NCBI GenBank assembly: GCA_963737655.1
Contig: CAVTTN010000002.1
Span: 5,856,001 to 5,920,000 of the forward strand
Direction: 5' to 3'
DNA length: 64,000 nucleotides
From: an uncultured Planctomycetota bacterium
GTDB taxonomy: Bacteria; Planctomycetota; Planctomycetia; Isosphaerales; Isosphaeraceae
Below, piece after piece: positions 4,185 to 37,246 of the stretch (position 1 is its first letter; each line of letters begins with the position of its first letter). Made by a program: the position numbers and the translations under genes. The notes under the pieces were generated by a model. It was not told where the DNA came from. It saw nothing but the letters and a program-made list of their open reading frames with translations, and searched no databases.

Positions 4185-4736
4185 ATGGAGACCGATCTTC
4201 GCAGGATCCTTACCAGGCTCGACGAGGCAGAAGCCGCTAATCGCCGCATGGCGAAGGGAAACACACATTTGAAGTATGCCACAATCTCTCTCGCGATCCT
4301 GATTTTGTTCATCCTTGTAGGAAGCACGCCGCGCCTCTGGGCCCAGGATAAGCAGAAGGCCAACAACGCTGAGCTGCGGTTCCGTTTCGGTTCGACGCTG
4401 GAGATCAACCGTGTCGACCTCCGTGCACTCACCTTGGTCGATGCTCAAGGCGACATTTGCGCCGCCATGCATTCCCCGACCGGCAAGCCGGCGTTTCTCC
4501 TCATGAACGGCGACGGCATCCCGGTCATGATGATCCTGAGACGAGGAGACATGGAGCCGGCCATCGTCTTCTACGATCGCGACGGCCACGATCCCTACGA
4601 GCTCCGGGTCAATCGCGACGGCGAGCCGAAGTTGGAATTGAGGAAGTTCCAGGATGTGCCAGGGCCCATCAAGCCGGAACCCGTCCCCCCTGGCTTCCCG
4701 ATCCCGGAGGGCAACAAACCCAAGGAAGGCAAATAA
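4185..4736 (+). CDS. Hypothetical membrane-anchored protein
   Basis: 183 aa; short coiled coil, TM helix, beta-rich domain; GAGG RBS. Confidence 0.6.
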   Translation: METDLRRILTRLDEAEAANRRMAKGNTHLKYATISLAILILFILVGSTPRLWAQDKQKANNAELRFRFGSTLEINRVDLRALTLVDAQGDICAAMHSPTGKPAFLLMNGDGIPVMMILRRGDMEPAIVFYDRDGHDPYELRVNRDGEPKLELRKFQDVPGPIKPEPVPPGFPIPEGNKPKEGK

Positions 4737-4913
4737 CGTAAGCTTTCAGCCGAATTCAGTTGATCTTGCAATCTGAGAGGCTATCCGGAAAGCTACGCAG
4801 CTTTATATTTCGGATATTTGAAAGGTATCCTCTTCCTCGATTCATCGGGGGCCAGGCGGAAAAGGGGTCAGGAGCCTATTGACGGCTTCGGGACTCCCGG
4901 ATCTCCTGGCCCC

Positions 4914-5293: not shown

Positions 5294-6001
5294 ATGCGGC
5301 GTACCCTGTTACTCTGCGTCGGCCTCCTCGCGTCCCAGGGCGCGATGGCCAGGGCCGACATCTTCTTCACCCAGAATTTCGTCGCCGATTTCGAGTTCTC
5401 CCTGCCGCCCGGCTCGCCCCTGAATTCCGGTTCCACGACGGTCGGCCCCATCCCCTTCGAGGCCGTCGGCAGCCTGACGATCGGGGTCGATAACGCGCTG
5501 AACGACCCGAGCATGCCGACCTCGGTCGCGATCACGAGCTTCTCGGGCAACCTGATCGGCGTCGCTCCGTCGAATTTCTTGCCCTACTCGATCGACCCGA
5601 ACGTCAGCTTCGTCGGCGGGAGCCTGACGAACATCGTCCGCGACGGCTCCGGCCAGGTGACCTCGGCCGACGTGACCGGCCTGTCGGCCTACTGGGAGAT
5701 GTTCGCGCCGGGCATCCGGCTCTACGGCGACACCCCCCTGGTCTTCGACGGGCCCATCACCGGCCTGCCGTTCACGCCGGGGGACATCATCGCCGGGCCG
5801 GACCCGTTCAACGTCTACCTCGACACGGGCAAAGGCCCCGGGGGGGGCGATCCCCTCTTCGCGATCGGCCAGAACCGGACGCTGAGGGCCGTCCCCGAGC
5901 CGGCCAGCCTCGCCCTGTTCGGGATCGGCGCGTCCTCGCTCCTGGGCCTCGCCCGCCGGAATCGGAAGAGGGCCGAGGCGGCTCGTCAAGTCGCCCGATA
6001 A
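5294..6001 (+). CDS. PEP-CTERM sorting-domain protein
   Basis: Signal peptide ending ARA-D; C-terminal VPEPASLALFGIG...RRNRKR. Confidence 0.9.
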   Translation: MRRTLLLCVGLLASQGAMARADIFFTQNFVADFEFSLPPGSPLNSGSTTVGPIPFEAVGSLTIGVDNALNDPSMPTSVAITSFSGNLIGVAPSNFLPYSIDPNVSFVGGSLTNIVRDGSGQVTSADVTGLSAYWEMFAPGIRLYGDTPLVFDGPITGLPFTPGDIIAGPDPFNVYLDTGKGPGGGDPLFAIGQNRTLRAVPEPASLALFGIGASSLLGLARRNRKRAEAARQVAR

Positions 6002-19086: not shown

Positions 19087-19937
19087 GCAGATCACCGGCC
19101 GGGTGGCATGCTTACGTCCGCGTAAGCATGTCTTCCTGCGACGCCCGCGCGGACATGCCCACCCAAACGCATGCATGTCTCCGCATGTTGTCCCGGAGGG
19201 TCCAGGCCCCAAACCAGGGGCCTCGGACCGTCCCCCGGGGGCATCCGATCACAAACCGAAGGGCGGATCACGGCAGACCTCCGAACCACGACCCGCACCA
19301 AGGCCGGAACCCCCGGCCCCAAGCGAGTCACCTTGCTCAAAACCATCGCGACCAACGCCCCCGACGATCACCCAATCCCAAAAATCGAACGGCGGCCCGA
19401 GAAACCACACGCCCTCGAAGGCCCTCGACCACGACCCGGGACTGCGCCGATTCGGACAGAAAACGAGCAAAAAGGCCCCGAAACCCCCTCGACGCAACTC
19501 CAGGAAGGGCCAGGACTTGAACGTGATACGAACAAAAAACTCAAATATGAGGATCGGACCCGCGTGCGCAGTCGCTGCGCGCTCGGAAACAGCCTGAAAA
19601 CCGCCGTTCCCGACGTTTCTCGGGAAAAAGTGTCGTCAACTTCCCCGAAAGTGTCGTCAACTTTCCCCCAACATCTGCGCTCACGCATCTCTAATTTCCT
19701 TCAAATCCACAGCGTCGAACAAATTTTCAAGATTCGCAGATTCGCACACCAGAACATCGGCAAGCTACCACTCTCAACTGCGACCCCCCTCTCCCGCGAC
19801 GACACTTCGGAGGGCAAGCCGCGGGCCGCCGTCATCGACGCAAGAACACCCCACCAAACTCCCCTTTCCCCCATCTTTCTCCGTGAATTTCGCAAATTAC
19901 CCCAAAGCTCCAAATTTCCCAAACCAACAGGAACAAG

Positions 19938-20335
19938 GAATCCTGCGAGGCCCCCTGCGCTCCGGGGGACGACCCGATCGAGACGCAACCGAGGAGGCCG
20001 CGACGCTCGTCGATTAGACCGCATCCACAGATTTATGAAAAATCAAATCTCGATTATATCAGCCTTGAACCGGCGGGTCGGCAAGGGCCGCCGATCTCCA
20101 AATTCGGGGTAACTCAGCTCGCACGTTGCCCCGGCTTTCTGATTTCCCGGCGGAGCACGCGGCGGGGATAACCCAGAGCACCCAGAACGCCAGGAAGGAA
20201 CCGGACCACCGGCCGAATCGAATCCAGGAGGAAAAAATCCAAGAAATTTCTTGCGGGGCGAGTTCCTCGCCGGCAAGATGAAAATCCGGCTCAGGATTAT
20301 ACGTCACTTTCGATGTCTACTTCATGTTAGGCGGA
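19938..20335 (+). repeat. Array leader copy A ending in an attI-like site (GTTAGGC 20326-20332)
   Basis: Direct paralogue of 28449-28910; ends CACTTTCGATGTCTACTTCATGTTAGGCGG just before the first cassette; no attC hairpin upstream. Confidence 0.65.
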
Positions 20336-20605: not shown

Positions 20606-20917
20606 ATGGCTCTAACGGCTTGCCCGGAGTGCGGGCGAGAGGTGTCCGACCGTGCCCCAACCTGCCCTCAGTGCGGGTGCCCGATCGCCAGCGCGACGCC
20701 CCGACCTCCCACCGCACCACCTCCAGCCCCGCGAACTCCCACACAACCACCTCAGGCCGCGCAGACGCATACCCGCAGCCAGGAGGTCGGCTCCTTCGAC
20801 AAGAGCTTCGGTAACGCGGCCGGGACCAGGCTCGGGTGCATGGCTGTGGGTGGGATCATACTTGCCATCTTATTCGTGTTCATAATGATTATCGCCGCCA
20901 TAGCCAACAGCCGGTAG
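20606..20917 (+). CDS. Cassette gene: zinc-ribbon plus TM protein
   Basis: CPECGREVSDRAPTCPQCG; C-terminal TM helix. Confidence 0.8.
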   Translation: MALTACPECGREVSDRAPTCPQCGCPIASATPRPPTAPPPAPRTPTQPPQAAQTHTRSQEVGSFDKSFGNAAGTRLGCMAVGGIILAILFVFIMIIAAIANSR

Positions 20918-20973
20918 AGTCGGCCCGACGAAAAGGAGACGGGATGGAATGCCATCGTCACGAGTCGGCCGCC

Positions 20974-21353
20974 TCTTCGTGAACTCTTTGGCTGGGAACG
21001 GCCATCGACGCGCGACACTACCCCAACCCCAGGCTTTGTGGCCGGGCAGCGGCGAGGTCCGGGTAGCAAACCGACGGATTCAAGAGCGGCGGACGAGGCG
21101 CGGGCCGAGAGGGGAGTCGGTTACGCTTGCAGTCTCTTCGACGGGAACATCCCCGCGAGTCGGCTCGCGGGGCGTCGCCAATGACCGGATCACGACCTCT
21201 CGGGCCAGGCTAACCTACGGGCAGGGAGCACCAAGGTGGAGACGGCCGGGAGGCCCGCGCCACACTCAGGCTACGCCGCGCCGGGTCGGCGGGCAAGTCG
21301 TCCCCGACCCCCGTTCACGCCCCGTCGGGAGCGGACGAAGGCCGCAGGATGGT
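20974..21353. mobile_element. 380-bp attC-inserted element, copy 1
   Basis: TCTTCGTGAACTC...CCGCAGGATGGT between CGCC and TAAC of the attC R'' box. Confidence 0.9.
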
Positions 21354-21449
21354 TAACCTCGCGCTGCAGCGGACCCGCACCGCCGCGACGGTTATCGTGC
21401 TATCATGGCTTACTCGGCGGTGCGGGTCCGCTGAGCTTTGGCGTTAGGC
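21354..21449 (+). other. attC site (R'' split by the element)
   Basis: TAAC-CTC-GCGCTGCAGCGGACCCGCACCGCCG...CGGCGGTGCGGGTCCGCTGAGC-GTTAGGC; extra G in L''. Confidence 0.9.
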
Positions 21450-21564
21450 GGCGGAGAACACCCCGTCGTCGCGTCGTGCCTGAAACCTCCTATCATCACG
21501 TCGAAGCTCCCCCGATCAGGCTCGCAACACCGGTCGGGAGTGAACGGCGGGAGTCGATCGCGCC

Positions 21565-21930
21565 ATGGAGAATGCCTCGCACTACCGCGATGATCCCAGG
21601 CGATTAGAGGCCGCTGAGCTGTTGGGCACATTGTTCTCATCGGCTCCGCGTCCGGCGGCGGAAATCCTGACCATCGCGAGGAAGCTGGAGGGCCATGACG
21701 GGGTCGGGTTCTTCAAGTTGCCGGTCCCCTATTTCATCAAATCGAATGGTATCGTGCTTAAGTCCGGATTAAACTCGATGAGGGGCGCGGTGAGTTCGCT
21801 CATAGCCGATCTAGAGGCGATGGACCCAGCGGCACTCGTCGTCGTCGATATCGACGCCAGTGCCCTGGGCGGTGGCCTGGCACCTGAAGAGCCGGTGCCA
21901 CCCGACAGCCGACCGGACGCCTCTTCGTGA
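21565..21930 (+). CDS. Cassette gene: hypothetical protein
   Basis: 121-aa ORF between attC sites; its stop codon lies inside element copy 2. Confidence 0.55.
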   Translation: MENASHYRDDPRRLEAAELLGTLFSSAPRPAAEILTIARKLEGHDGVGFFKLPVPYFIKSNGIVLKSGLNSMRGAVSSLIADLEAMDPAALVVVDIDASALGGGLAPEEPVPPDSRPDASS

Positions 21931-22301
21931 ACTCTTTGGCTGGGAACGGCCATCGACGCGCGACACTACCCCAACCCCAGGCTTTGTGGCCGGGCAGCGG
22001 CGAGGTCCGGGTAGCAAACCGACGGATTCAAGAGCGGCGGACGAGGCGCGGGCCGAGAGGGGAGTCGGTTACGCTTGCAGTCTCTTCGACGGGAACATCC
22101 CCGCGAGTCGGCTCGCGGGGCGTCGCCAATGACCGGATCACGACCTCTCGGGCCAGGCTAACCTACGGGCAGGGAGCACCAAGGTGGAGACGGCCGGGAG
22201 GCCCGCGCCACACTCAGGCTACGCCGCGCCGGGTCGGCGGGCAAGTCGTCCCCGACCCCCGTTCACGCCCCGTCGGGAGCGGACGAAGGCCGCAGGATGG
22301 T
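21922..22301. mobile_element. 380-bp attC-inserted element, copy 2
   Basis: Identical to copy 1 as read. Confidence 0.9.
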
Positions 22302-22398
22302 TAACCTCGCGCTGCAGCGGACCCCGCACCGCCGCGGCGCCTTCTCTGTTATCCTGCCCCTCTCGGCGGTGCGGGTCCGCTGAGCTTAGGTGTTAGGC
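22302..22398 (+). other. attC site
   Basis: TAAC...imperfect hairpin...GTTAGGC (22392-22398). Confidence 0.9.
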
Positions 22399-22450: not shown

Positions 22451-23125
22451 ATGAGGAATCGAACAACGTCGCTATTTGTCAGTCTGGTCGTGATGGCCTC
22501 AGCCAGTGGCGCCAAGGGCGACCTACTTATCAACCCAGGGGCCGAGACGGGCGACCTGACCGGCTGGACCAAGGGCGGGGTCTCGAACCCGTTCGTCGAC
22601 AACGGGTCCTTCGACCCGGGCATCAATCCTCACTCCGGTCGCTTCGATTTCGTCGGCGGCACGGGCGCGTTCGGGACGCTCACCCAGAACGTCTCCTTGG
22701 CCGGCGCTCCGGGAGTTACCGACGCCCAGATCGATAGCGGGATCGTCTCTGCTCAGGTATCCTTCTGGGAGCAGGGACTCAACCAAGGCCCCACCAGCGA
22801 TAACGGCTTCGTCTCGCTCACCTTCCGTGACGCGAACAACTCGGTGTTGGGCACCGTCTCTACTCCAGTGATCGATTCTCACGACCTGACCTGGGAGAAC
22901 TTCACCGGGAGCTTCGCGGTCCTGGCTGGCACTCGTTCTATCGATTACACGATGAACTTCACGCGCCATGTCGGCAGCGATAACGATGCATTTTTCGACG
23001 ACAACAGCCTCACGGTCTCGGTTAATTCCGTGCCGGAGCCGACCAGTCTCTTTATGTTGGGGTCCGGTGCTCTGGCGGTTCTCGGCTACGCCCGGCGGCG
23101 AAGGGTGCAGACCGCCTCTTCGTGA
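22451..23125 (+). CDS. Cassette gene: PEP-CTERM protein
   Basis: Signal peptide; LLINPGAETGDLTGW; VPEPTSLFMLGSG...RRRR. Confidence 0.9.
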   Translation: MRNRTTSLFVSLVVMASASGAKGDLLINPGAETGDLTGWTKGGVSNPFVDNGSFDPGINPHSGRFDFVGGTGAFGTLTQNVSLAGAPGVTDAQIDSGIVSAQVSFWEQGLNQGPTSDNGFVSLTFRDANNSVLGTVSTPVIDSHDLTWENFTGSFAVLAGTRSIDYTMNFTRHVGSDNDAFFDDNSLTVSVNSVPEPTSLFMLGSGALAVLGYARRRRVQTASS

Positions 23126-23496
23126 ACTCTTTGGCTGGGAACGGCCATCGACGCGCGACACTACCCCAACCCCAGGCTTTGTGGCCGGGCAGCGGCGAGG
23201 TCCGGGTAGCAAACCGACGGATTCAAGAGCGGCGGACGAGGCGCGGGCCGAGAGGGGAGTCGGTTACGCTTGCAGTCTCTTCGACGGGAACATCCCCGCG
23301 AGTCGGCTCGCGGGGCGTCGCCAATGACCGGATCACGACCTCTCGGGCCAGGCTAACCTACGGGCAGGGAGCACCAAGGTGGAGACGGCCGGGAGGCCCG
23401 CGCCACACTCAGGCTACGCCGCGCCGGGTCGGCGGGCAAGTCGTCCCCGACCCCCGTTCACGCCCCGTCGGGAGCGGACGAAGGCCGCAGGATGGT
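23117..23496. mobile_element. 380-bp attC-inserted element, copy 3
   Basis: Identical to copy 1 as read. Confidence 0.9.
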
Positions 23497-23593
23497 TAAC
23501 CTCGCGCTGCAGCGGACCCCGCACCGCCGCGGCGCTCACTCTGCTATCATGGCTCACTCGGCGGTGCGGGTCCGCTGAGCTTTGTTGTTAGGC
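23497..23593 (+). other. attC site
   Basis: TAAC...hairpin...GTTAGGC (23587-23593). Confidence 0.9.
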
Positions 23594-24007: not shown

Positions 24008-24387
24008 TCTTCGTGAACTCTTTGGCTTGGAACGGCCATCGACGCGCGACACTACCCCAACCCCAGGCTTTGTGGCCGGGCAGCGGCGAGGTCCGGGTAG
24101 CAAACCGACGGATTCAAGAGCGGCGGACGAGGCGCGGGCCGAGAGGGGAGTCGGTTACGCTTGCAGTCTCTTCGACGGGAACATCCCCGCGAGTCGGCTC
24201 GCGGGGCGTCGCCAATGACCGGATCACGACCTCTCGGGCCAGGCTAACCTACGGGCAGGGAGCACCAAGGTGGAGACGGCCGGGAGGCCCGCGCCACACT
24301 CAGGCTACGCCGCGCCGGGTCGGCGGGCAAGTCGTCCCCGACCCCCGTTCACGCCCCGTCGGGAGCGGACGAAGGCCGCAGGATGGT
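24008..24387. mobile_element. 380-bp attC-inserted element, copy 4
   Basis: One substitution (G>T at 24028) relative to the other copies. Confidence 0.9.
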
Positions 24388-24484
24388 TAACCTCGCGCTG
24401 CAGCGGACCCGGCCCGCCGCGGCGCTTTCTGGTAATATCAAGGTCAATCTCGGCGGGCCGGTCCGCTGAGCTTTGTCGTTAGGC
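24388..24484 (+). other. attC site
   Basis: TAAC...GGACCCGGCCCGCCG/CGGCGGGCCGGTCC...GTTAGGC (24478-24484). Confidence 0.9.
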
Positions 24485-24501: not shown

Positions 24502-25398
24502 TTGAAGCGTGAAGCGCGACTCAACGAGACTATAGACGCAATCCTTGAGGATTTCATTGCGATCGGGTCGCCTCGTGCTGGTGCGCTGCTCAGCAACGAT
24601 GCTGATCCTGAATTCATCCGGGGTGTTCAGGCTGCGATTGTTTCGCTTGAAATGGGAATTTCATTATCTTATGCTGAAAAGCGATACGTCCCACCAGCAG
24701 GCCCAATCGTCCTCCCAAAACGGTACATCTTGTTTCAAGGCGCTTATCGTACCGCCGTTGATCATGTTAGTCGCATAAAGAAAAAGTGGAGACAGCGACC
24801 CGATGAGGAGCAGATTTGCAGTGTTGGCGGTATCGTGTTCTCAAATGTTGCTCTTCGGCGAGTGGAGGGCACCTTCCGCGCGGCGGGTCTATTGTTTCGA
24901 ATAGGATATATGCTCGAAGCCCGAGCAGTTGCACGAACTATTTTGGAACAAGTAGCGTGGTCTTATGCAGTCCGCGACATTATTGATTTTGATCAAGCAT
25001 CTAAATTGAGTCCTACAAAATGTATTTCGGAGTTAAAGAAATTGCTGCCTTACGTTGGGCGGCTTTATGGGGATTTAAGTGAAGAGACGCACCTAGGGTT
25101 GGAAGAGCATGGTCGCTTCCTGCGTATTGAGGGAAATACCTCGAAAGTGCTTTTTTGTCATGGCGAAGATAGTTGGGAGAGCGGGCTAGTTTTGTTGAAT
25201 TTGGCAGACATCTGGGCTGTTGTCTTTGAATGCTCCCAGCGAGCATTCGTGTTGCAGCCGGAATGCTGGTCCGCGAAAATCAACGGCTTCGAGCTCAACA
25301 AAGATCGCCCTATGGTCAAGACCATCGAAGAATACTACGCCGACGCCGATGGAATAGCTGAGATGGCGGCCGATCTCAGGGATAATGCGGACGCCTAA
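24502..25398 (+). CDS. Cassette gene: AT-richer hypothetical protein, DUF5677/HEPN-like
   Basis: GGAGG RBS and TTG start; ARAVARTILE and YGDLSEETH motifs; ends GCC TAA (R''), remainder of attC lost. Confidence 0.65.
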   Translation: MKREARLNETIDAILEDFIAIGSPRAGALLSNDADPEFIRGVQAAIVSLEMGISLSYAEKRYVPPAGPIVLPKRYILFQGAYRTAVDHVSRIKKKWRQRPDEEQICSVGGIVFSNVALRRVEGTFRAAGLLFRIGYMLEARAVARTILEQVAWSYAVRDIIDFDQASKLSPTKCISELKKLLPYVGRLYGDLSEETHLGLEEHGRFLRIEGNTSKVLFCHGEDSWESGLVLLNLADIWAVVFECSQRAFVLQPECWSAKINGFELNKDRPMVKTIEEYYADADGIAEMAADLRDNADA

Positions 25399-25787
25399 AG
25401 GCGGAAAAGGGGACGAAGGCGGAAAAGGGGACGGAGGGAATTAGGGGCGGAAAAGGCGGAAAAGGGGACGGAGGGAATTAGGGGCGGAAAAGGGGTCAGG
25501 AGCCGAAAACGGGTTTATTTAGGCGCAGTTTCGGCTCCTGACCCCTTTTCCGCCCTCGTTTTCGGCTCCTGACCCCTTTTCCGCCTTTGACCCCTTTTCC
25601 GCCTTGACCCCTTTTCCGCCTCCCCGCAAATCCGGGGATTCTGCGCCACTTTCGATGTCTACTTCATGTGGGGCGGAAAAGGGGACGGTGGGAATAAACA
25701 AGATTAATACAACCTATTTATTCCCTCCGTCCCCTTTTCCGCCCCCCCGTCCCCTTTTCCGCCCCCCGTCCCCTTTTCCGCCCCCCG
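25399..25787. repeat. Cluster of GGCGGAAAAGGGG(AC/TC) REP-like repeats enclosing an attI-like fragment
   Basis: Many direct and inverted copies; 25621-25668 matches the leader end at 28857-28903. Confidence 0.85.
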
Positions 25788-25850
25788 AAGGATGCTGTTG
25801 CGATTGAGTACGAGCAACGCTTTATCGATTCGTGCAGTTGAGCCGAGCGA

Positions 25851-28255: not shown

Positions 28256-28444
28256 CGGAAAGGGGGACGAGGCGGAAAGGGGGACGCGAGGCGGAAAGGG
28301 GGACGGAGGGAATTATGAGCTTTCCGAGCCACTGAAGGCCGCCTCCCCGTGGGGACGGAAAAGGGGTCAGGGGACGGAAAAGGGGTCAGGAGCCGAAAAT
28401 GGATTTATTTAGGCCCATTTTCGGCTCCTGACCCCTTTTCCGCC
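28253..28444. repeat. REP-like repeat cluster with inverted doublet
   Basis: GGCGGAAAGGGGGAC x3; GGAAAAGGGGTCAGGAGCCGAAAATGG...CCATTTTCGGCTCCTGACCCCTTTTCC. Confidence 0.85.
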
Positions 28445-28448
28445 CAAA

Positions 28449-28910
28449 GAATCCTGCGAGGCCCCCTGCGCTCCGGGGGACGACCCGATCGAGACGCAAC
28501 CGAGGAGGCCGCGACGATCGTCCATTAGAACGAATCTACAGGTACAGAAAGAATCAAATATCGATTACGTCGGCCCCGAACCGGTGGGTCGGCAAGGTCC
28601 CCCGATCTCCGAATTCGGGGTAACCCAGCTCGCACGTTGCCCCAGTTTTCTGATTTCCCGGCGGAGCACGCGGCGAGGATAACCCAGAGCACCCAGAACG
28701 CCAGGAAGGAACCGGACCACCGGCCGGATCGAATCCAGGAGGAAAAAATCCAAGAAATCCCTTGCGAGGCGAGTTCCCCGCCGGCAAAATCAAAATCCGC
28801 CTCAGGATTATACGTGCTAAACGACGTGATAAGTCACGTCGTTTAGCACGTATAATCCCGCAAATTCGGGGATTCTGCGTCACTTTCGATGTCTGCTTCA
28901 TGTTAGGCGG
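28449..28910 (+). repeat. Array leader copy B ending in an attI-like site (GTTAGGC 28902-28908)
   Basis: Paralogue of 19938-20335, with an extra palindrome. Confidence 0.65.
28805..28858. promoter_or_regulatory. Perfect 25-bp-arm palindrome with TATAAT on both strands
   Basis: GGATTATACGTGCTAAACGACGTGA-TAAG-TCACGTCGTTTAGCACGTATAATCC. Confidence 0.55.
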
Positions 28911-29054: not shown

Positions 29055-30044
29055 ATGAAACGGATCGTCCAGACATCCACGATGGTCGCATTGCTGGCCG
29101 TGGCCGGTAGGCCGGCTCGGGCCGACATGGCGACCTACGCATTCGCGCTCAACAACGCGGGGGTGACCGTCGGTGCCTATTACGACGAATCGAGCACCGT
29201 CCCCTACTATGGTCACGGCTTCCTCTATTCCGGCGGCCAGTACACGACTCTCGACGACCCCCTGGCGGCCTACGGCACGGAGGCGACCTCGATCAACAAC
29301 TCCGGTCAGGTTGTGGGAAATTATTTTGATGGCTCTGGCAAGTCACAGGACTTCCTCTATTCGGGGGGGATGTTCACCACGCTCAACCTCCCCTTCGGGA
29401 CGATCCGGAGCACCCAGGCGCTGGGGATCAACGACTCCTCGGCGATCGTGGGCTACTACGAAGACGGCTCGCGGGTCTATCACGGCTTCCTCTCCTCCGG
29501 GGGGGCCTATTCCACGATCGACGTCCCCGGCGCGAGCTTCACGGTCACGGCCGGGATCAACAACGCCGGCCAGATCGTGGGCAGTTTCGACGACGCCACC
29601 GGGGGCCACGGCTTCCTTTACTCCGGCGGGATCTTCACCGCGCTGGACGACCCCTTAGGAGTGAACGGCACGGTCGCTTCGGGGATCAATAATCTGGGCC
29701 AGATCGTCGGCTACTACACGGACAGCTCGAACAAGGCCCACGGCTTCATCGAGTCGGGCGGCCAGTACACCACGATTGACTATCCCGGCGGAATCAACGG
29801 CTCGTTCGCGAATGGGATCAACGACTCCGGATCGGTCGCCGGCTATTTCTACGACGACACGAACGGATTTCTGTATGCCAACGGGTCGTTTACCGTGCTC
29901 TCGGTGCCGGAGCCGTCGTCGCTCTTGCATTTCATGACCGCGTCGCTGGTCGGTCTCGGCGGGCTGATCCATCGTGGCCTGGCGGGACGCGGAAAAGGGG
30001 ACGGCGGAAATTGTGGGCCTGCCGAGTCGCCGAAGATCGCCTAA
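29055..30044 (+). CDS. Cassette gene: extracellular HAF-like repeat PEP-CTERM protein
   Basis: Repeats GINNxGQIVG...HGFLYSGG; VPEPSS; ends GCC TAA of a truncated attC (30039-30049). Confidence 0.9.
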   Translation: MKRIVQTSTMVALLAVAGRPARADMATYAFALNNAGVTVGAYYDESSTVPYYGHGFLYSGGQYTTLDDPLAAYGTEATSINNSGQVVGNYFDGSGKSQDFLYSGGMFTTLNLPFGTIRSTQALGINDSSAIVGYYEDGSRVYHGFLSSGGAYSTIDVPGASFTVTAGINNAGQIVGSFDDATGGHGFLYSGGIFTALDDPLGVNGTVASGINNLGQIVGYYTDSSNKAHGFIESGGQYTTIDYPGGINGSFANGINDSGSVAGYFYDDTNGFLYANGSFTVLSVPEPSSLLHFMTASLVGLGGLIHRGLAGRGKGDGGNCGPAESPKIA

Positions 30045-30201
30045 CCTCGAGGCGGAAAAGGGGACGGAGGGAATTCTGAGCTTTCCGAGCCACTGAAGGC
30101 CGCCCCCACGGGGAGGCGACCTCTGCATGGCGCTTCCCTCGGCCGGGCGCTTCGTCTAGAGTGATCCCGACTCGGGGGCGGTCCGCAGACGAGAGGAACC
30201 C

Positions 30202-30588
30202 ATGCCCTTATTCGATGACGCCCCTCCCACGGACCATGCCGGCGGAGGCGGGAGCCGCTTCGATCCCATCAAAGTGCGGACTCGGCCGGCCTCCCGCCAG
30301 GAGCGGTATGTGAGCGGGGTCCTCCTGGCGTTCGGCTCGCTCGCCCTGTCGATGTGCGTTCAACAGACGTGGGCCCACGACTTCCGGGCCCCGAACAGCG
30401 GCTGGCGGCTATTCGGGATGTACCTGGTCCCGGCCGTCCTCTTTGCCCTCGCCCTCCATCAGAGGAGGGCCCGCCGCGTGATCGGGTCTGTTTCGGAGGA
30501 GGAGGGGGATGGCGACGGGAGGCGAGGAAAGGGGTCAGGAGCGAGGCGAGGAAAGGGGTCAGGAGCCGATTTTGGCGGGCGGGTCTGA
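30202..30588 (+). CDS. Hypothetical two-TM protein, C-terminus running into REP repeats
   Basis: GAGG RBS; two hydrophobic segments; RGKGSG tail encoded by the repeats. Confidence 0.45.
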   Translation: MPLFDDAPPTDHAGGGGSRFDPIKVRTRPASRQERYVSGVLLAFGSLALSMCVQQTWAHDFRAPNSGWRLFGMYLVPAVLFALALHQRRARRVIGSVSEEEGDGDGRRGKGSGARRGKGSGADFGGRV

Positions 30589-30978: not shown

Positions 30979-31358
30979 TCTTCGTGAACTCTTTGGCTGG
31001 GAACGGCCATCGACGCGCGACACTACCCCAACCCCAGGCTTTGTGGCCGGGCAGCGGCGAGGTCCGGGTAGCAAACCGACGGATTCAAGAGCGGCGGACG
31101 AGGCGCGGGCCGAGAGGGGAGTCGGTTACGCTTGCAGTCTCTTCGACGGGAACATCCCCGCGAGTCGGCTCGCGGGGCGTCGCCAATGACCGGATCACGA
31201 CCTCTCGGGCCAGGCTAACCTACGGGCAGGGAGCACCAAGGTGGAGACGGCCGGGAGGCCCGCGCCACACTCAGGCTACGCCGCGCCGGGTCGGCGGGCA
31301 AGTCGTCCCCGACCCCCGTTCACGCCCCGTCGGGAGCGGACGAAGGCCGCAGGATGGT
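30979..31358. mobile_element. 380-bp attC-inserted element, copy 5
   Basis: Identical to copy 1 as read. Confidence 0.9.
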
Positions 31359-31456
31359 TAACCTCGCGCTGCAGCGGACCCCGGCCACGGGCCGCGTTTT
31401 TTCTGATCTCGAGCTCACTGTTCCGTGGCCGGGTCCGCTGAACTTGGTCGTTAGGC
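31359..31456 (+). other. attC site
   Basis: TAAC...CCGGCCACGG/CCGTGGCCGG...GTTAGGC (31450-31456). Confidence 0.9.
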
Positions 31457-31636: not shown

Positions 31637-32689
31637 ATGCGTTCTTTCCTCTTCGCCCTGATCCCGGGCCTCTTCCTGGCCGACTCCTCGCGGGCCGATG
31701 ATCCGCCCGGGCCGCCGCCGCTGAAGATCGCCGGTACGCAAATCCAGACCCTCGATGGGAAGGCCGTGCGCCTGCGAGGTGTCAATCTCCCCGGCCTGAT
31801 GTGGGGCGAGAGGGCACACCTTGGGTCGTCGATCCGCGTCGCTACCGAAGAGTGGGGCGCCAACATCATCCGGGTGTGCCTGTCGCCGGATCTCTGGTAT
31901 GGCAAGGCGAAGGGGGACAAGGACGGAGGCGCAGGCTACCGTAAGACCGTGCATGCCGTCGTCGACCAGGTAGCCGCCCGGCACTGCTACGTGATCCTCG
32001 TCCTGACCTGGTACGGGGATGCCCGGTGGGGCGAGAACCATGTCTCGCATCACAAGATGCCCGACGACGATAGCGTCGCGTTCTGGGCCGACCTGGCGAC
32101 GGCCTTCGCCCACCAACCGGCCGTCCTTTTCGGCCTCTACAACGAGCCATGGGGCGTCCCCTGGCAAGTCTGGCGCAACGGCGGCACGGTCACGGAAGGG
32201 AACGATAAGGTCCCCGGTGACAGGCGCGAGTACCACACCCCCGGCCTGCAAAAGCTCGTCGACGTCTGCCGCTCCAAGGGGGCACGGAACCTGATCGTCG
32301 CCGGCGGCCTGGATTGGGCCTACGACCTGACCGGCATCGCCGAGGGGTTTGCCCTGAAAGACCCGAAGGGGCACGGCGTGGTGTACGATACACACATGTA
32401 TTCCGGGAAAAAATGGCACATGCGCAATGGCAAGAAGGATTGGGAATGGGACCGCGTGGTGCTGTCAGGGGGCGGGAAGTATCCGGTCATCATCGGCGAG
32501 TTCGGCGACGACGCGGCGGAATTCAATGCGAAGGTCCTGGAGTTCGCCGCCGAGCACGATCTCCCCTGGATCGCATGGAGTTTCCACCCCAGCGCCAAAC
32601 CCTGCCTGATCAAGGACTGGAACTACGTGCCGACGAACATCGGCCGGCAGGTGAAGGACGCCCTTAAAAAGGCACCCGGCACGAGGTGA
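31637..32689 (+). CDS. Cassette gene: glycoside hydrolase family 5 (cellulase-like)
   Basis: LRGVN, GANIIRV, YNEP (acid/base), HMY, IIGEFG (nucleophile), WIAWSF; signal peptide. Confidence 0.9.
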   Translation: MRSFLFALIPGLFLADSSRADDPPGPPPLKIAGTQIQTLDGKAVRLRGVNLPGLMWGERAHLGSSIRVATEEWGANIIRVCLSPDLWYGKAKGDKDGGAGYRKTVHAVVDQVAARHCYVILVLTWYGDARWGENHVSHHKMPDDDSVAFWADLATAFAHQPAVLFGLYNEPWGVPWQVWRNGGTVTEGNDKVPGDRREYHTPGLQKLVDVCRSKGARNLIVAGGLDWAYDLTGIAEGFALKDPKGHGVVYDTHMYSGKKWHMRNGKKDWEWDRVVLSGGGKYPVIIGEFGDDAAEFNAKVLEFAAEHDLPWIAWSFHPSAKPCLIKDWNYVPTNIGRQVKDALKKAPGTR

Positions 32690-32785
32690 GCCGAAGGGAC
32701 GAAGTTCGGGCCGTTGACGCGGGAAGAGGGGACGGCGGGAAATGGGGACGGCGGGAATTACGAGGTTACTGTATCGTCCAAGATC

Positions 32786-32885
32786 GCCTAACCTCGCGCA
32801 GCCGCGGACCCCGCACCGCCGCGGCGCTTTCTGTGTTATCATCGCCTTCTCGGCGGTGCGGGTCCGCTGAGCTTGGTCGTTAGGC
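32786..32885 (+). other. attC site, not interrupted
   Basis: GCCTAAC...hairpin...GTTAGGC. Confidence 0.9.
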
Positions 32886-32891
32886 GGCTCG

Positions 32892-33521
32892 ATGCCGAAT
32901 CAAATCTCCCACCCCATTCCCTCGACGGGAGGCGTTCTCTTCCCCGAGGATCTGGCTGACCTGGGCGGCCGGCTTGTCGCCGGTCGGGCCGAGTTGATTT
33001 CGTTGCGCGGCGATCGCGGCGTAGGTTGCCTCACCTCTGTCGAGAGCCGACTGACTTGGCTTGATGACTTCGAGATCTTTGTCTTTCAAGTCCTTGCGGA
33101 TGGAACTCGGAAGGCTATCCGCAAGGCCACGAGTGAGGACTTTGAGGAGTTTCGTGATCCGATCCGGATTCAGGGCGAGGGGGTTCCGATCTGCATCTGG
33201 CTCGATCCGGTAAACCCGGGCTATTGGCCCAAGATCGAGCTGCACGACGGTCAAGAAGTCCTCATCGGTAGAGGTCCTCACTGCCATGTCGTCCTCACTG
33301 TAGACACCGTCGGGAAAACGCACTGCTCCATCTCGCATCGCGATGGTGTCACGGTGGTCGAGGATTTTGGCACGAGGTACGGGGTTTCCGTGAATGGCCT
33401 GCGCATCGATCGGGCGAGTCTCGCCCCGGGCGACCTGGTCGGGATCGGCGGGGTCGAAGTCGGGGTCGGCGGGGTAGAATATGTCGTGCGAGGACGCCAC
33501 AACGAACTGGCCGACGCCTAA
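32892..33521 (+). CDS. Cassette gene: FHA-domain protein
   Basis: VLIGRGPHCHVVL...VGKTHCSI...EDFGTRYGVSVNG...LAPGD; stop TAA within R''. Confidence 0.75.
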   Translation: MPNQISHPIPSTGGVLFPEDLADLGGRLVAGRAELISLRGDRGVGCLTSVESRLTWLDDFEIFVFQVLADGTRKAIRKATSEDFEEFRDPIRIQGEGVPICIWLDPVNPGYWPKIELHDGQEVLIGRGPHCHVVLTVDTVGKTHCSISHRDGVTVVEDFGTRYGVSVNGLRIDRASLAPGDLVGIGGVEVGVGGVEYVVRGRHNELADA

Positions 33522-33615
33522 CCTCGCGCAGCCGCGGACCCCGCACCGCCGCGGCGCTTTCTGTGTTATCATCGCCTTCTCGGCGGTGCGGGTCCACTGA
33601 GCTTATGCGTTAGAC
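33516..33615 (+). other. attC site, not interrupted
   Basis: GCCTAAC...GTTAGAC; near-identical to 32786-32885. Confidence 0.9.
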
Positions 33616-34003: not shown

Positions 34004-34103
34004 GCCTGACCTCGCGCAGCCGCGGACCCCGCACCGCCGCCGAGCTCACCCTGAGATCAAGCTTCACTCGGCGGTGCGGGTTTGCTGAGCTCCGTCGTTA
34101 GGC
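34004..34103 (+). other. attC site with mutated R'' (GCCTGAC)
   Basis: Hairpin arms conserved; GTTAGGC 34097-34103. Confidence 0.8.
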
Positions 34104-36204: not shown

Positions 36205-36304
36205 GCCCAACCCGGCGCTGCAGCGGACCCCACCCGGCGCGACGGTTTGTGCTACGATCGAAGGTCGCTCGGGCGGGCGGGTTCGCGGAGCTTTGGCGGT
36301 AGCG
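36205..36304 (+). other. Degenerate attC site
   Basis: GCCCAAC-CCG-GCGCTGCAGCGG...GCGGAGC...GGTAGCG (GTT changed to GGT). Confidence 0.7.
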
Positions 36305-36315
36305 GTAGGAGGCGT

Positions 36316-36777
36316 ATGCGACGCTTCATCATACGGCGGCTTGCGGTCGCGGCGATCGGCCTCTTCGTGGCCGCCGTCGCCCTGCTCGCCGCATCGTTTC
36401 ACCCCGATTGGCCGTCGCACCCCCTTCAACTCGCCCACGACCGATGGGGCAACGGCATCGCCTACGTGCAAGTCGCGGGCGGGCGCGCCAGCCTCTTCAG
36501 CGAGATCGACTTCGACTCGGCCGACTCTCCCAAACCTTATGTCGCCAACCCTCGAACCATCGTCGCGCCGAAGGTGACGAAGCACTATCAGTTCGCTCTC
36601 CCGGGGTTGAACTTCCAGTTCTGCCGGTTCGCCGAAGGGCCGCCGACCTGGTCGCTCGGCCTCTCGTTGGCGATCCCCGCAGGCCTCTCGCTGATCGTCG
36701 CCCTTTTTCTCATCCGTCGATTGCGAGGCCGTCGGCCGCGGGATACCGTGGCCCACGACGGGGCCGCCTCTTCGTGA
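36316..36777 (+). CDS. Cassette gene: hypothetical two-TM protein
   Basis: AGGAGG RBS; stop codon inside element copy 6. Confidence 0.7.
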   Translation: MRRFIIRRLAVAAIGLFVAAVALLAASFHPDWPSHPLQLAHDRWGNGIAYVQVAGGRASLFSEIDFDSADSPKPYVANPRTIVAPKVTKHYQFALPGLNFQFCRFAEGPPTWSLGLSLAIPAGLSLIVALFLIRRLRGRRPRDTVAHDGAASS

Positions 36778-37148
36778 ACTCTTTGGCTGGGAACGGCCAT
36801 CGACGCGCGACACTACCCCAACCCCAGGCTTTGTGGCCGGGCAGCGGCGAGGTCCGGGTAGCAAACCGACGGATTCAAGAGCGGCGGACGAGGCGCGGGC
36901 CGAGAGGGGAGTCGGTTACGCTTGCAGTCTCTTCGACGGGAACATCCCCGCGAGTCGGCTCGCGGGGCGTCGCCAATGACCGGATCACGACCTCTCGGGC
37001 CAGGCTAACCTACGGGCAGGGAGCACCAAGGTGGAGACGGCCGGGAGGCCCGCGCCACACTCAGGCTACGCCGCGCCGGGTCGGCGGGCAAGTCGTCCCC
37101 GACCCCCGTTCACGCCCCGTCGGGAGCGGACGAAGGCCGCAGGATGGT
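36769..37148. mobile_element. 380-bp attC-inserted element, copy 6
   Basis: Identical to copy 1 as read. Confidence 0.9.
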
Positions 37149-37246
37149 TAACCTCGCGCTGCAGCGGGCCCCGAACCGCCGCGGTGCCCGTGCTTCGAGT
37201 CGAAGTTTGCTCGGCGGTGCGTGGCCGCTGAGCTTGGTCGTTAGGC
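37149..37246 (+). other. attC site
   Basis: TAAC...CCGCTGAGC...GTTAGGC (37240-37246). Confidence 0.85.

Follow-up and report, generated by a model that had tools for sequence, protein, structure and literature searches.

Bridge RNAs of the IS110 group are known from IS621 (Durrant et al. 2024, PMC11208160). In the accessible text of that study, the RNA lies ahead of a DEDD/serine recombinase gene, within the non-coding left end, the target loop precedes the donor loop, a dinucleotide core (CT on one strand) is included in the guides and relatives are naturally reprogrammed. A transposase-less IS110-family module with an RNA gene has also been described, that is, MITEPpu9/ssr9, the companion of ISPpu9 in Pseudomonas putida (PMC12288879). 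According to the accessible part of that paper, MITEPpu9 has AG at the crossover, is moved by its partner's transposase, is at times found in tandem, has ends with one to three mismatches from those of its parent and targets REP sequences in numbers close to the parent's (8 vs 7); Ssr9 is discussed there as a regulator and is not shown to be a guide.

The IS1111-attC elements (ISKpn4, ISPst6, and ISPa25) are RNA-guided to one fixed attC position each and are autonomous, with the RNA downstream of a transposase of 330-350 aa (Siddiquee et al. 2024, PMC11187229, accessible text). In the case of ISPpu10, an IS110 element targets hairpin-forming repeats (10.64898/2026.03.19.712850, accessible text). 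The accessible part of one survey covers recombinase-adjacent RNAs only and makes no mention of non-autonomous or orphan elements or of attC (10.64898/2026.10.21.760802), and the reverse case, recombinases without RNA, is treated in the accessible part of another report (10.64898/2026.08.14.744561). Bridge RNAs, attC-targeting IS1111 elements and a transposase-less IS110 module with an RNA gene are already known. In the main texts of the mostly open-access literature searched, neither a gene-less element with a covarying, helper-mismatched donor guide nor an IS110 element with an upstream RNA at attC was found.

The window, that is, the whole 64,000-nucleotide stretch of DNA analysed, contains copies of a short, gene-less element inserted in attC sites. 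As judged from sequence comparison, this element very probably makes its own bridge RNA, loads the recombinase of a long relative in trans and inserts at attC. Its clade resembles IS621 in the placement of the RNA in the long form, the order of the loops, the dinucleotide core within the guides and the natural reprogramming among relatives. It differs in having a short form without recombinase, in one guide per loop bearing most of the signal (5 nt plus core, a second donor guide not being found), and in the core, which is AG in the element's direction. With MITEPpu9 the short element shares the absence of a transposase, the RNA gene, the AG crossover and the tandem arrangement seen in one relative (L129, below). 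In contrast to MITEPpu9, it targets attC, outnumbers the long element 28 to 8, has a guide shown by covariation and has a donor code that differs from the helper's. Compared with the IS1111-attC elements, the guide region is upstream of a gene for a 450-aa protein and a long downstream non-coding region is not found; this upstream placement indicates that attC targeting was reached separately from the IS1111 elements.

Anatomy, copies, and long relatives of the short element

The short element is 380 bp long, and the insertion point of copy 1 lies between CT and AACCT. The window has six copies (table 1), which differ by one base in all; the genome as a whole has 28 full copies, and 15 of these are identical to each other. 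The element is located in the R'' box of attC, in orientation opposite to the cassette genes. Eight longer elements occupy the same attC position; six of them measure 1784 or 1802 bp, and the other two have lost internal parts. All 36 insertions are at the same attC core.

The insertion takes place at a short core without target duplication. In the 36 insertions, one core base is common to both sides, and an empty twin site restores the target exactly; for instance, one cassette end was found both occupied (C2:1971065) and empty (C2:6787902). The core differs at its second base between the two junctions, with AA at the left and AG at the right in the element's direction, in all 36 insertions and in the near clade. 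This difference may mark the site of strand exchange. More distant relatives have AG at both junctions.

Table 1. Features of the short element and of the surrounding attC sites (positions in the window)
Feature	Position	Strand	Remark
Short element, copy 1 (380 bp, without transposase)	20975-21354	-	left end 21354 and right end 20975 in the element's direction
Short element, copy 2	21923-22302	-	
Short element, copy 3	23118-23497	-	
Short element, copy 4	24009-24388	-	one differing base
Short element, copy 5	30980-31359	-	
Short element, copy 6	36770-37149	-	
CT core of the target at the insertion point	20973-20974	+	AG in the element's direction; all 36 insertions
Rest of the interrupted attC	21355-21449	+	target, not element
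Subterminal 6-bp motif	20979-20984		inverted partner 21313-21318; conserved in long relatives
Promoter-like pair, by eye	21268-21296	-	-35-like 21291-21296, 17 nt, -10-like 21268-21273
Predicted bridge RNA, about 165 nt	21097-21261	-	10-bp terminal stem, 21252-21261 with 21097-21106; putative ends
Opposite strand of the target loop, weaker guide for the other flank	21233-21243	-	21234-21239 fits the commonest flank 5/6
Main target guide, 5 programmable nt and 2 core nt	21210-21216	-	complementary to CTAACCT, + strand of attC
5' arm of the long-range helix enclosing the donor loop	21196-21203	-	pairs with 21105-21112; 5/7 pairs changed on both sides
Opposite strand of the donor loop	21180-21190	-	no significant left-end match in the family
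Central hairpin of the donor loop (9 bp)	21151-21172	-	length variable among homologues
Donor guide, matching the element's own right end and core	21134-21140	-	covariation with the end
Mirror of the right end	21145-21152	+	overlaps a scaffold helix; unsupported as guide
13-nt match to attC	21046-21058	+	outside the predicted RNA; unsupported as guide
Empty attC	32786-32885	+	perfect 7-nt guide match
Empty attC	33516-33615	+	perfect 7-nt guide match
Empty attC	34004-34103	+	mismatch beside the core
Empty attC	36205-36304	+	two guide mismatches, one in the core

The six full long copies encode, on the minus strand, a 450-aa IS110 recombinase (P0001), which matches NF033542 IS110 at 251 bits (cut-off 140) as well as PF01548 (DEDD) and PF02371 (Transposase_20). 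The residues D-E-D-D and S, whose roles we take to be those of IS621, are in place in 6/6 of these copies, and the likeness of P0001 to IS621 is distant (E 5e-11). Upstream of the recombinase gene, the non-coding end has 75% identity with nt 128-288 of the short element, and the tips of both ends are common to the short and the long elements. Due to this homology, the short element, which encodes no recombinase, is regarded as a gene-less IS110 relative read on the minus strand. The long form is an IS110-family recombinase element and the short form is its non-autonomous derivative. The latter is MITE-like, with no mobility genes, many near-identical copies and ends related to, though not identical with, those of its long partner.

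In the genome, no kinds of IS110 genes were found besides the P0001 type and one other, 34% identical to it (G000:C2:4847084-4848526, with a fragment at 287101-287583), which is in or near attC clusters. Head-to-tail tandems of long clade elements, with few bases between them, are seen in L221, L231, and L135 (G481 and a named record).

The sole subterminal inverted motif of the short element is of 6 bp, at distances of 4 and 36 nt from the two ends, where 7-17 bp are the criterion for IS1111-attC elements. The promoter-like pair has equal spacing in three short elements but lies below the threshold of the sigma-70 scan, which found no promoter. The Rfam scan of 20900-21500 gave weak hairpin matches on the attC only and nothing that explains the element.

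Guides and structure of the predicted bridge RNA

An earlier reading of the window from its letters alone (hereafter, the sequence-only reading) had listed internal matches of copy 1 at 21046-21058, 21134-21140, 21145-21152, and 21208-21216 and the 9-bp hairpin at 21151-21172, all of them correctly placed. It had treated the flanking attC sequence as target rather than element, which agrees with seven empty sites that carry in full both the 7-mer CTAACCT and the 12-mer of attC matched by the 13-nt segment. It had allowed that the two shorter matches (21208-21216 and 21134-21140) could be due to chance, and had named covariation with the flanking attC among homologues as the check.

For the comparison, 205 loci with a related recombinase were gathered; 107 of them have the target-loop anchor, 59 also have the left-end anchor and 54 were kept. 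Five loci with ambiguous or distant junctions were left out of the target test, the junctions were placed without use of the guide and one locus was taken per distinct guide. The bases equivalent to 21212-21216 match the insertion flank at 68/70 positions (14 distinct guides), compared with 23.2 +/- 5.0 and a maximum of 46 in 20,000 shuffles. The match at 21208-21216 thus covaries with the target in homologues. At the three positions beyond the guide, 10/42 match versus 9.3 when shuffled, and 23 of the 27 distinct guide-flank pairs are perfect. All 36 insertions carry the 7-nt guide match. In distant loci (<58% protein identity), the target guide was located upstream in 11/28 only, and the result is therefore firm for the near clade only. 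Within that clade, the target-binding loop covaries with its target in the manner of IS110 bridge RNAs.

The opposite strand of the target loop shows a weaker signal for the other flank (76/164 vs 41.1 +/- 5.7 and 70/164 vs 45.9 +/- 5.0 in 41 rows), which is split over two neighboring registers of the five tested. This second target guide sits before the hairpin, and none was seen by eye after it.

In the case of the donor guide, the bases equivalent to 21136-21140 occur in 10 forms in the recombinase loci. Nine of the 10 forms recur downstream of the gene, where a common end motif precedes every one of them (1.3 +/- 1.1 when shuffled), and the short element adds an eleventh form, matched by its own end. 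The match at 21134-21140 was thus also found to covary, here with the element end. The short donor guide differs from that of the resident long element at 2/5 positions, and the element end differs likewise. In the short relative of L129, guide and end have changed together once more. Both guides are intact in 28/28 short copies. A second donor guide against the left end was not significant in 27 rows (best p 0.096); significant covariation of the donor loop with the junction was seen on one side.

In both loops alike, an 11-nt strand leads to a hairpin, which is followed by CCCG, a single base, the guide and finally the core. The sequence-only reading had noted that the order of its matches is unlike the canonical layout of IS621. 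This is so on the plus strand, but on the minus strand the target loop comes first and the donor loop follows. With the core taken as CT on the plus strand, the two target strands fall in the order described for IS621 (PMC11208160, accessible text).

The fold of 21093-21262 (a 170-nt core) has a z of -3.54, with 0/200 shuffles as good, and for the whole element the minus-strand fold does not surpass that of shuffles (z -0.65). A five-helix structure, on an alignment of 34 rows, has 89.1% of the cells paired, versus 36-62% in slid controls, and the terminal stem is present in homologues. Two-sided changes occur in 10 of the 22 structural pairs, with half of the pairs invariant or varying on one side. 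The structure is drawn from the same sequences and six pairs depart often, so that these values are support and not proof; RNAalifold recovered the target loop only. A structured non-coding RNA region thus seems to lie at the element end upstream of the gene, as in the IS110 group.

In the short elements of G003 (147/165 vs 71/102, p 1.4e-4) and L129 (129/165 vs 64/102, p 0.0075), conservation is higher over the RNA part than within the right end's interior, and the comparison is not significant in two diverged copies of the genome itself, G000 (p 0.08 and 0.14). One RNA run (share 0.06) gave a single 175-nt contig of a relative, which is less than 90% alike over 21156-21297 and carries no information on strand or ends.

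In close autonomous relatives, a C-rich stretch just past the donor guide (window 21118-21124) is able to fold back on the guide, and it is lost in both short families. When 16 close autonomous relatives are compared with 6 short sequences, sequestration of the donor guide by a nearby hairpin is the stronger in the former (p 0.0008); over all 44 sequences p is 0.17, and the comparison is confounded by G-rich guides and kinship.

Occupancy of the attC sites

The attC pattern search gave 72 rows, of which 71 were scored (C2:4298600 was left out, its left side being unresolved); two insertions with a truncated attC are outside this table. There are 34 occupied and 37 empty sites. The 7-mer is present in 34/34 occupied and 15/37 empty sites, that is, occupancy is 34/49 with the 7-mer and 0/22 without it. 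The exact 12-mer is found in 25/34 occupied and 10/37 empty sites, and over all insertions in 25/36 (22/28 short and 3/8 long). Given the 7-mer, the 12-mer is commoner in occupied sites (25/34 vs 7/15, p 0.10). Duplicated cassettes inflate these counts, the empty sites representing 14 contexts with and 14 without the 7-mer.

According to the sequence-only reading, only attC sites that match the element are occupied and the unoccupied ones are escape variants. In the window, the exact 12-mer is indeed present at all six occupied sites and at none of the four intact empty ones. Genome-wide the rule breaks down, with 11/36 insertions lacking the 12-mer and 10/37 empty sites carrying it. Escape is plausible when it is defined by the short guide, as shown by the absence of insertions from sites without the 7-mer, but not when it is defined by the 12-mer. 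Two of the four supposed escape sites (32786 and 33516; such coordinates give the start of a site, which precedes the 12-mer by about 5 nt) have a perfect 7-mer.

Another 41 genomic 7-mer sites, a few of them attC-like, are empty, and the guide alone is therefore insufficient for the preference for attC. The attC hairpin or the loss of insertions in genes may add selectivity to that of the 7-9 paired bases, and the second target guide could contribute. Stem-loop-assisted targeting, as in the accessible description of ISPpu10 (10.64898/2026.03.19.712850), is a possible explanation; however, hairpin energy does not distinguish the 7-mer sites that are occupied here from those that are empty (p 0.26). 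Stem mismatches did not separate them significantly either (27/34 vs 8/15, p 0.09).

At least seven attC clusters are present in G000:C2 (near 284-291, 1673-1682, 1970-1987, 4673-4675, 4849-4851, 5877-5893, and 6778-6793 kb), one of which adjoins an integron integrase. This gene (TIGR02249, 474.6 bits, cut-off 265) is beside another genomic array, outside the window. One small cassette, which has an AACCC site, is present many times over, in no case with an insertion. At C2:4298600 (minus strand), the attC is preceded by a few bases like the end of the short element, with no body, and is possibly a remnant. Purine-rich short repeats of the GGAAAAGGGG type interrupt the array (window 25387-25790, 28259-28450, 29985-30120, 30544-30576, and 32688-32760); an attC is cut short by them at about 30043, as are a long element and a second attC in other parts of the genome. 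These may be a mobile repeat or an assembly artefact. A two-copy repeat of at least 300 nt and 91% identity, unrelated to the element, is located at 19934-20233 and 28445-28744.

Mobilization, competing explanations, and origin

In the proposed sequence of events, an IS110-family insertion sequence would have lost its recombinase gene and kept both ends and the bridge RNA. This RNA, presumably transcribed from the minus strand, would bind the recombinase of the long element in trans. Copying or excision would yield the short element as a circle closed at the core, which would then insert into the R'' box of attC at the CT core, its direction being opposite to that of the cassette genes. A nucleic-acid guide encoded in the element had already been proposed in the sequence-only reading. 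It is supported here as an IS110-type guide by the covariation with target and element end and by the related recombinase-coding element in the same genome, but not by the 13-nt match that was its lead evidence.

The short element might instead be an ends-only miniature, moved by both the recombinase and the RNA of the long element, with its own RNA region a passive remnant. The target guide is common to the short and long elements, so that the target site cannot distinguish the two possibilities, and IS110 guides tolerate some mismatches, donor-side half matches being able to drive excision (10.64898/2026.08.31.748434, accessible part). Moreover, in G002 the end type of the short family adjoins a recombinase remnant of 66 codons, and the match between guide and end may thus be inherited from a lost parent. 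Nevertheless, the short end mismatches the donor guide of the helper at two of the five positions read by the guide and its own donor guide is changed to match, which makes its own RNA the most likely one to move it. The second joint change of guide and end within the short lineage (L129), the better conservation of the RNA part than of the rest and the absence of the short end type from all 172 recombinase loci also argue against a passive remnant, which is considered unlikely. Mobilization by its own bridge RNA and a borrowed recombinase is the preferred explanation. It is very unlikely that the 13-nt segment acts as a further guide and adds to the specificity for attC. The segment is kept in 24/28 short copies, with two more changed at the bulged base only, its conservation (11/13 in G003 and 10/13 in L129) is slightly above that of its surroundings (70% and 63%), and the 12-mer is commoner in occupied 7-mer sites, as given above. 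However, a match of at least 12 nt with one bulge or mismatch to the 40-nt target window is reached in 30 of 300 dinucleotide shuffles, and the segment lies about 40 nt past the 3' end of the predicted RNA. It is absent from the two long copies searched, while 8/8 long copies use the same attC position; the two remaining short copies have a common version with a further mismatch and sit at different sites, and 6/28 short copies are in sites without the 12-mer. The match of 21145-21152 to the right end is not supported as a guide either: it is borderline (75 vs 69.4 +/- 3.1, p 0.05, 21 rows), and the segment is altered in two diverged copies whose element end is unchanged.

Spread of the copies mainly through integrase-driven cassette duplication or gene conversion, and not by their own insertion, would agree with the integron integrase of the genome and with two pairs of copies that have the same cassette flank. 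It is exceedingly improbable, given the 34 distinct left flanks among 36 insertions and the cassette end that exists with and without the element. An ORF-less intron of the group IIC-attC type, whose exon-binding sites would be the internal matches, would be similar in size to the short element, but the GUGCG and AY termini of the group II consensus are absent, by eye, from the element ends on either strand. Such introns reportedly insert in attC opposite to the cassette (PMC3001079). No group II family was found in Rfam at E up to 10 and the homology of the short element is to IS110 ends, so that an intron has hardly any likelihood at all.

A further-reaching reading of the short element is offered only tentatively and is rather doubtful as a whole. 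In this, it would be an RNA-autonomous but protein-dependent parasite with a private donor code, whose own promoter drives a bridge RNA that captures the helper recombinase for an end unreadable by the helper's RNA. Without the hairpin in which close autonomous relatives bury their donor guide, it might outcompete and damp the helper and fill about half of the attCs, thus restraining cassette shuffling genome-wide, and guide-keeping miniatures would have arisen at least twice in the clade.

The locus is a natural test case of a bridge RNA that would hijack the recombinase of another element in trans with its own donor code. Such use of a helper bears on copy-number control in IS110 elements and on orthogonal donor-guide pairs for bridge editing. 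The clade offers a natural series of 14 reprogrammed target guides, together with 11 donor guides (10 from recombinase loci and the short one), on a compact scaffold. It also provides a case in which an IS110-group, and not an IS1111, element reaches attC, with 34/71 scored attCs occupied in one genome, and this occupation may change the shuffling of integron cassettes.

The G002 end beside the recombinase remnant suggests that the private donor code may stem from a lost sister element, and at an assembly completeness of 87.7% a closer parent could have been missed. A 13-base end pattern gave mostly single, chance-level matches across 121 genomes of the family; among 32 end-pattern loci examined, the RNA region was present in the known G003 copy only. 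A viral-contig match to the pattern was rejected as chance.

The short family is also present in G003, of the same genus, with one full and three cut copies. At L129:1815-2215, a short relative of 391 bp and 74% identity is placed in tandem directly behind a long element. The junction of this tandem has the predicted form of a circle junction, and the target guide of the short relative has 2-3 extra bases. A second gene-less family, of about 481-489 bp, has an ordinary donor end and the whole RNA region kept (L243 in G014 and L245 in G476), with guide-flank matches of 5/5 and 4/5. In a tree of 26 RNA regions (the set at 58% and above plus two outgroups), a single origin of the five short sequences is rejected (p-AU 0.004). 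Where carriers of the near clade are named, the label is mostly Planctomycetota.
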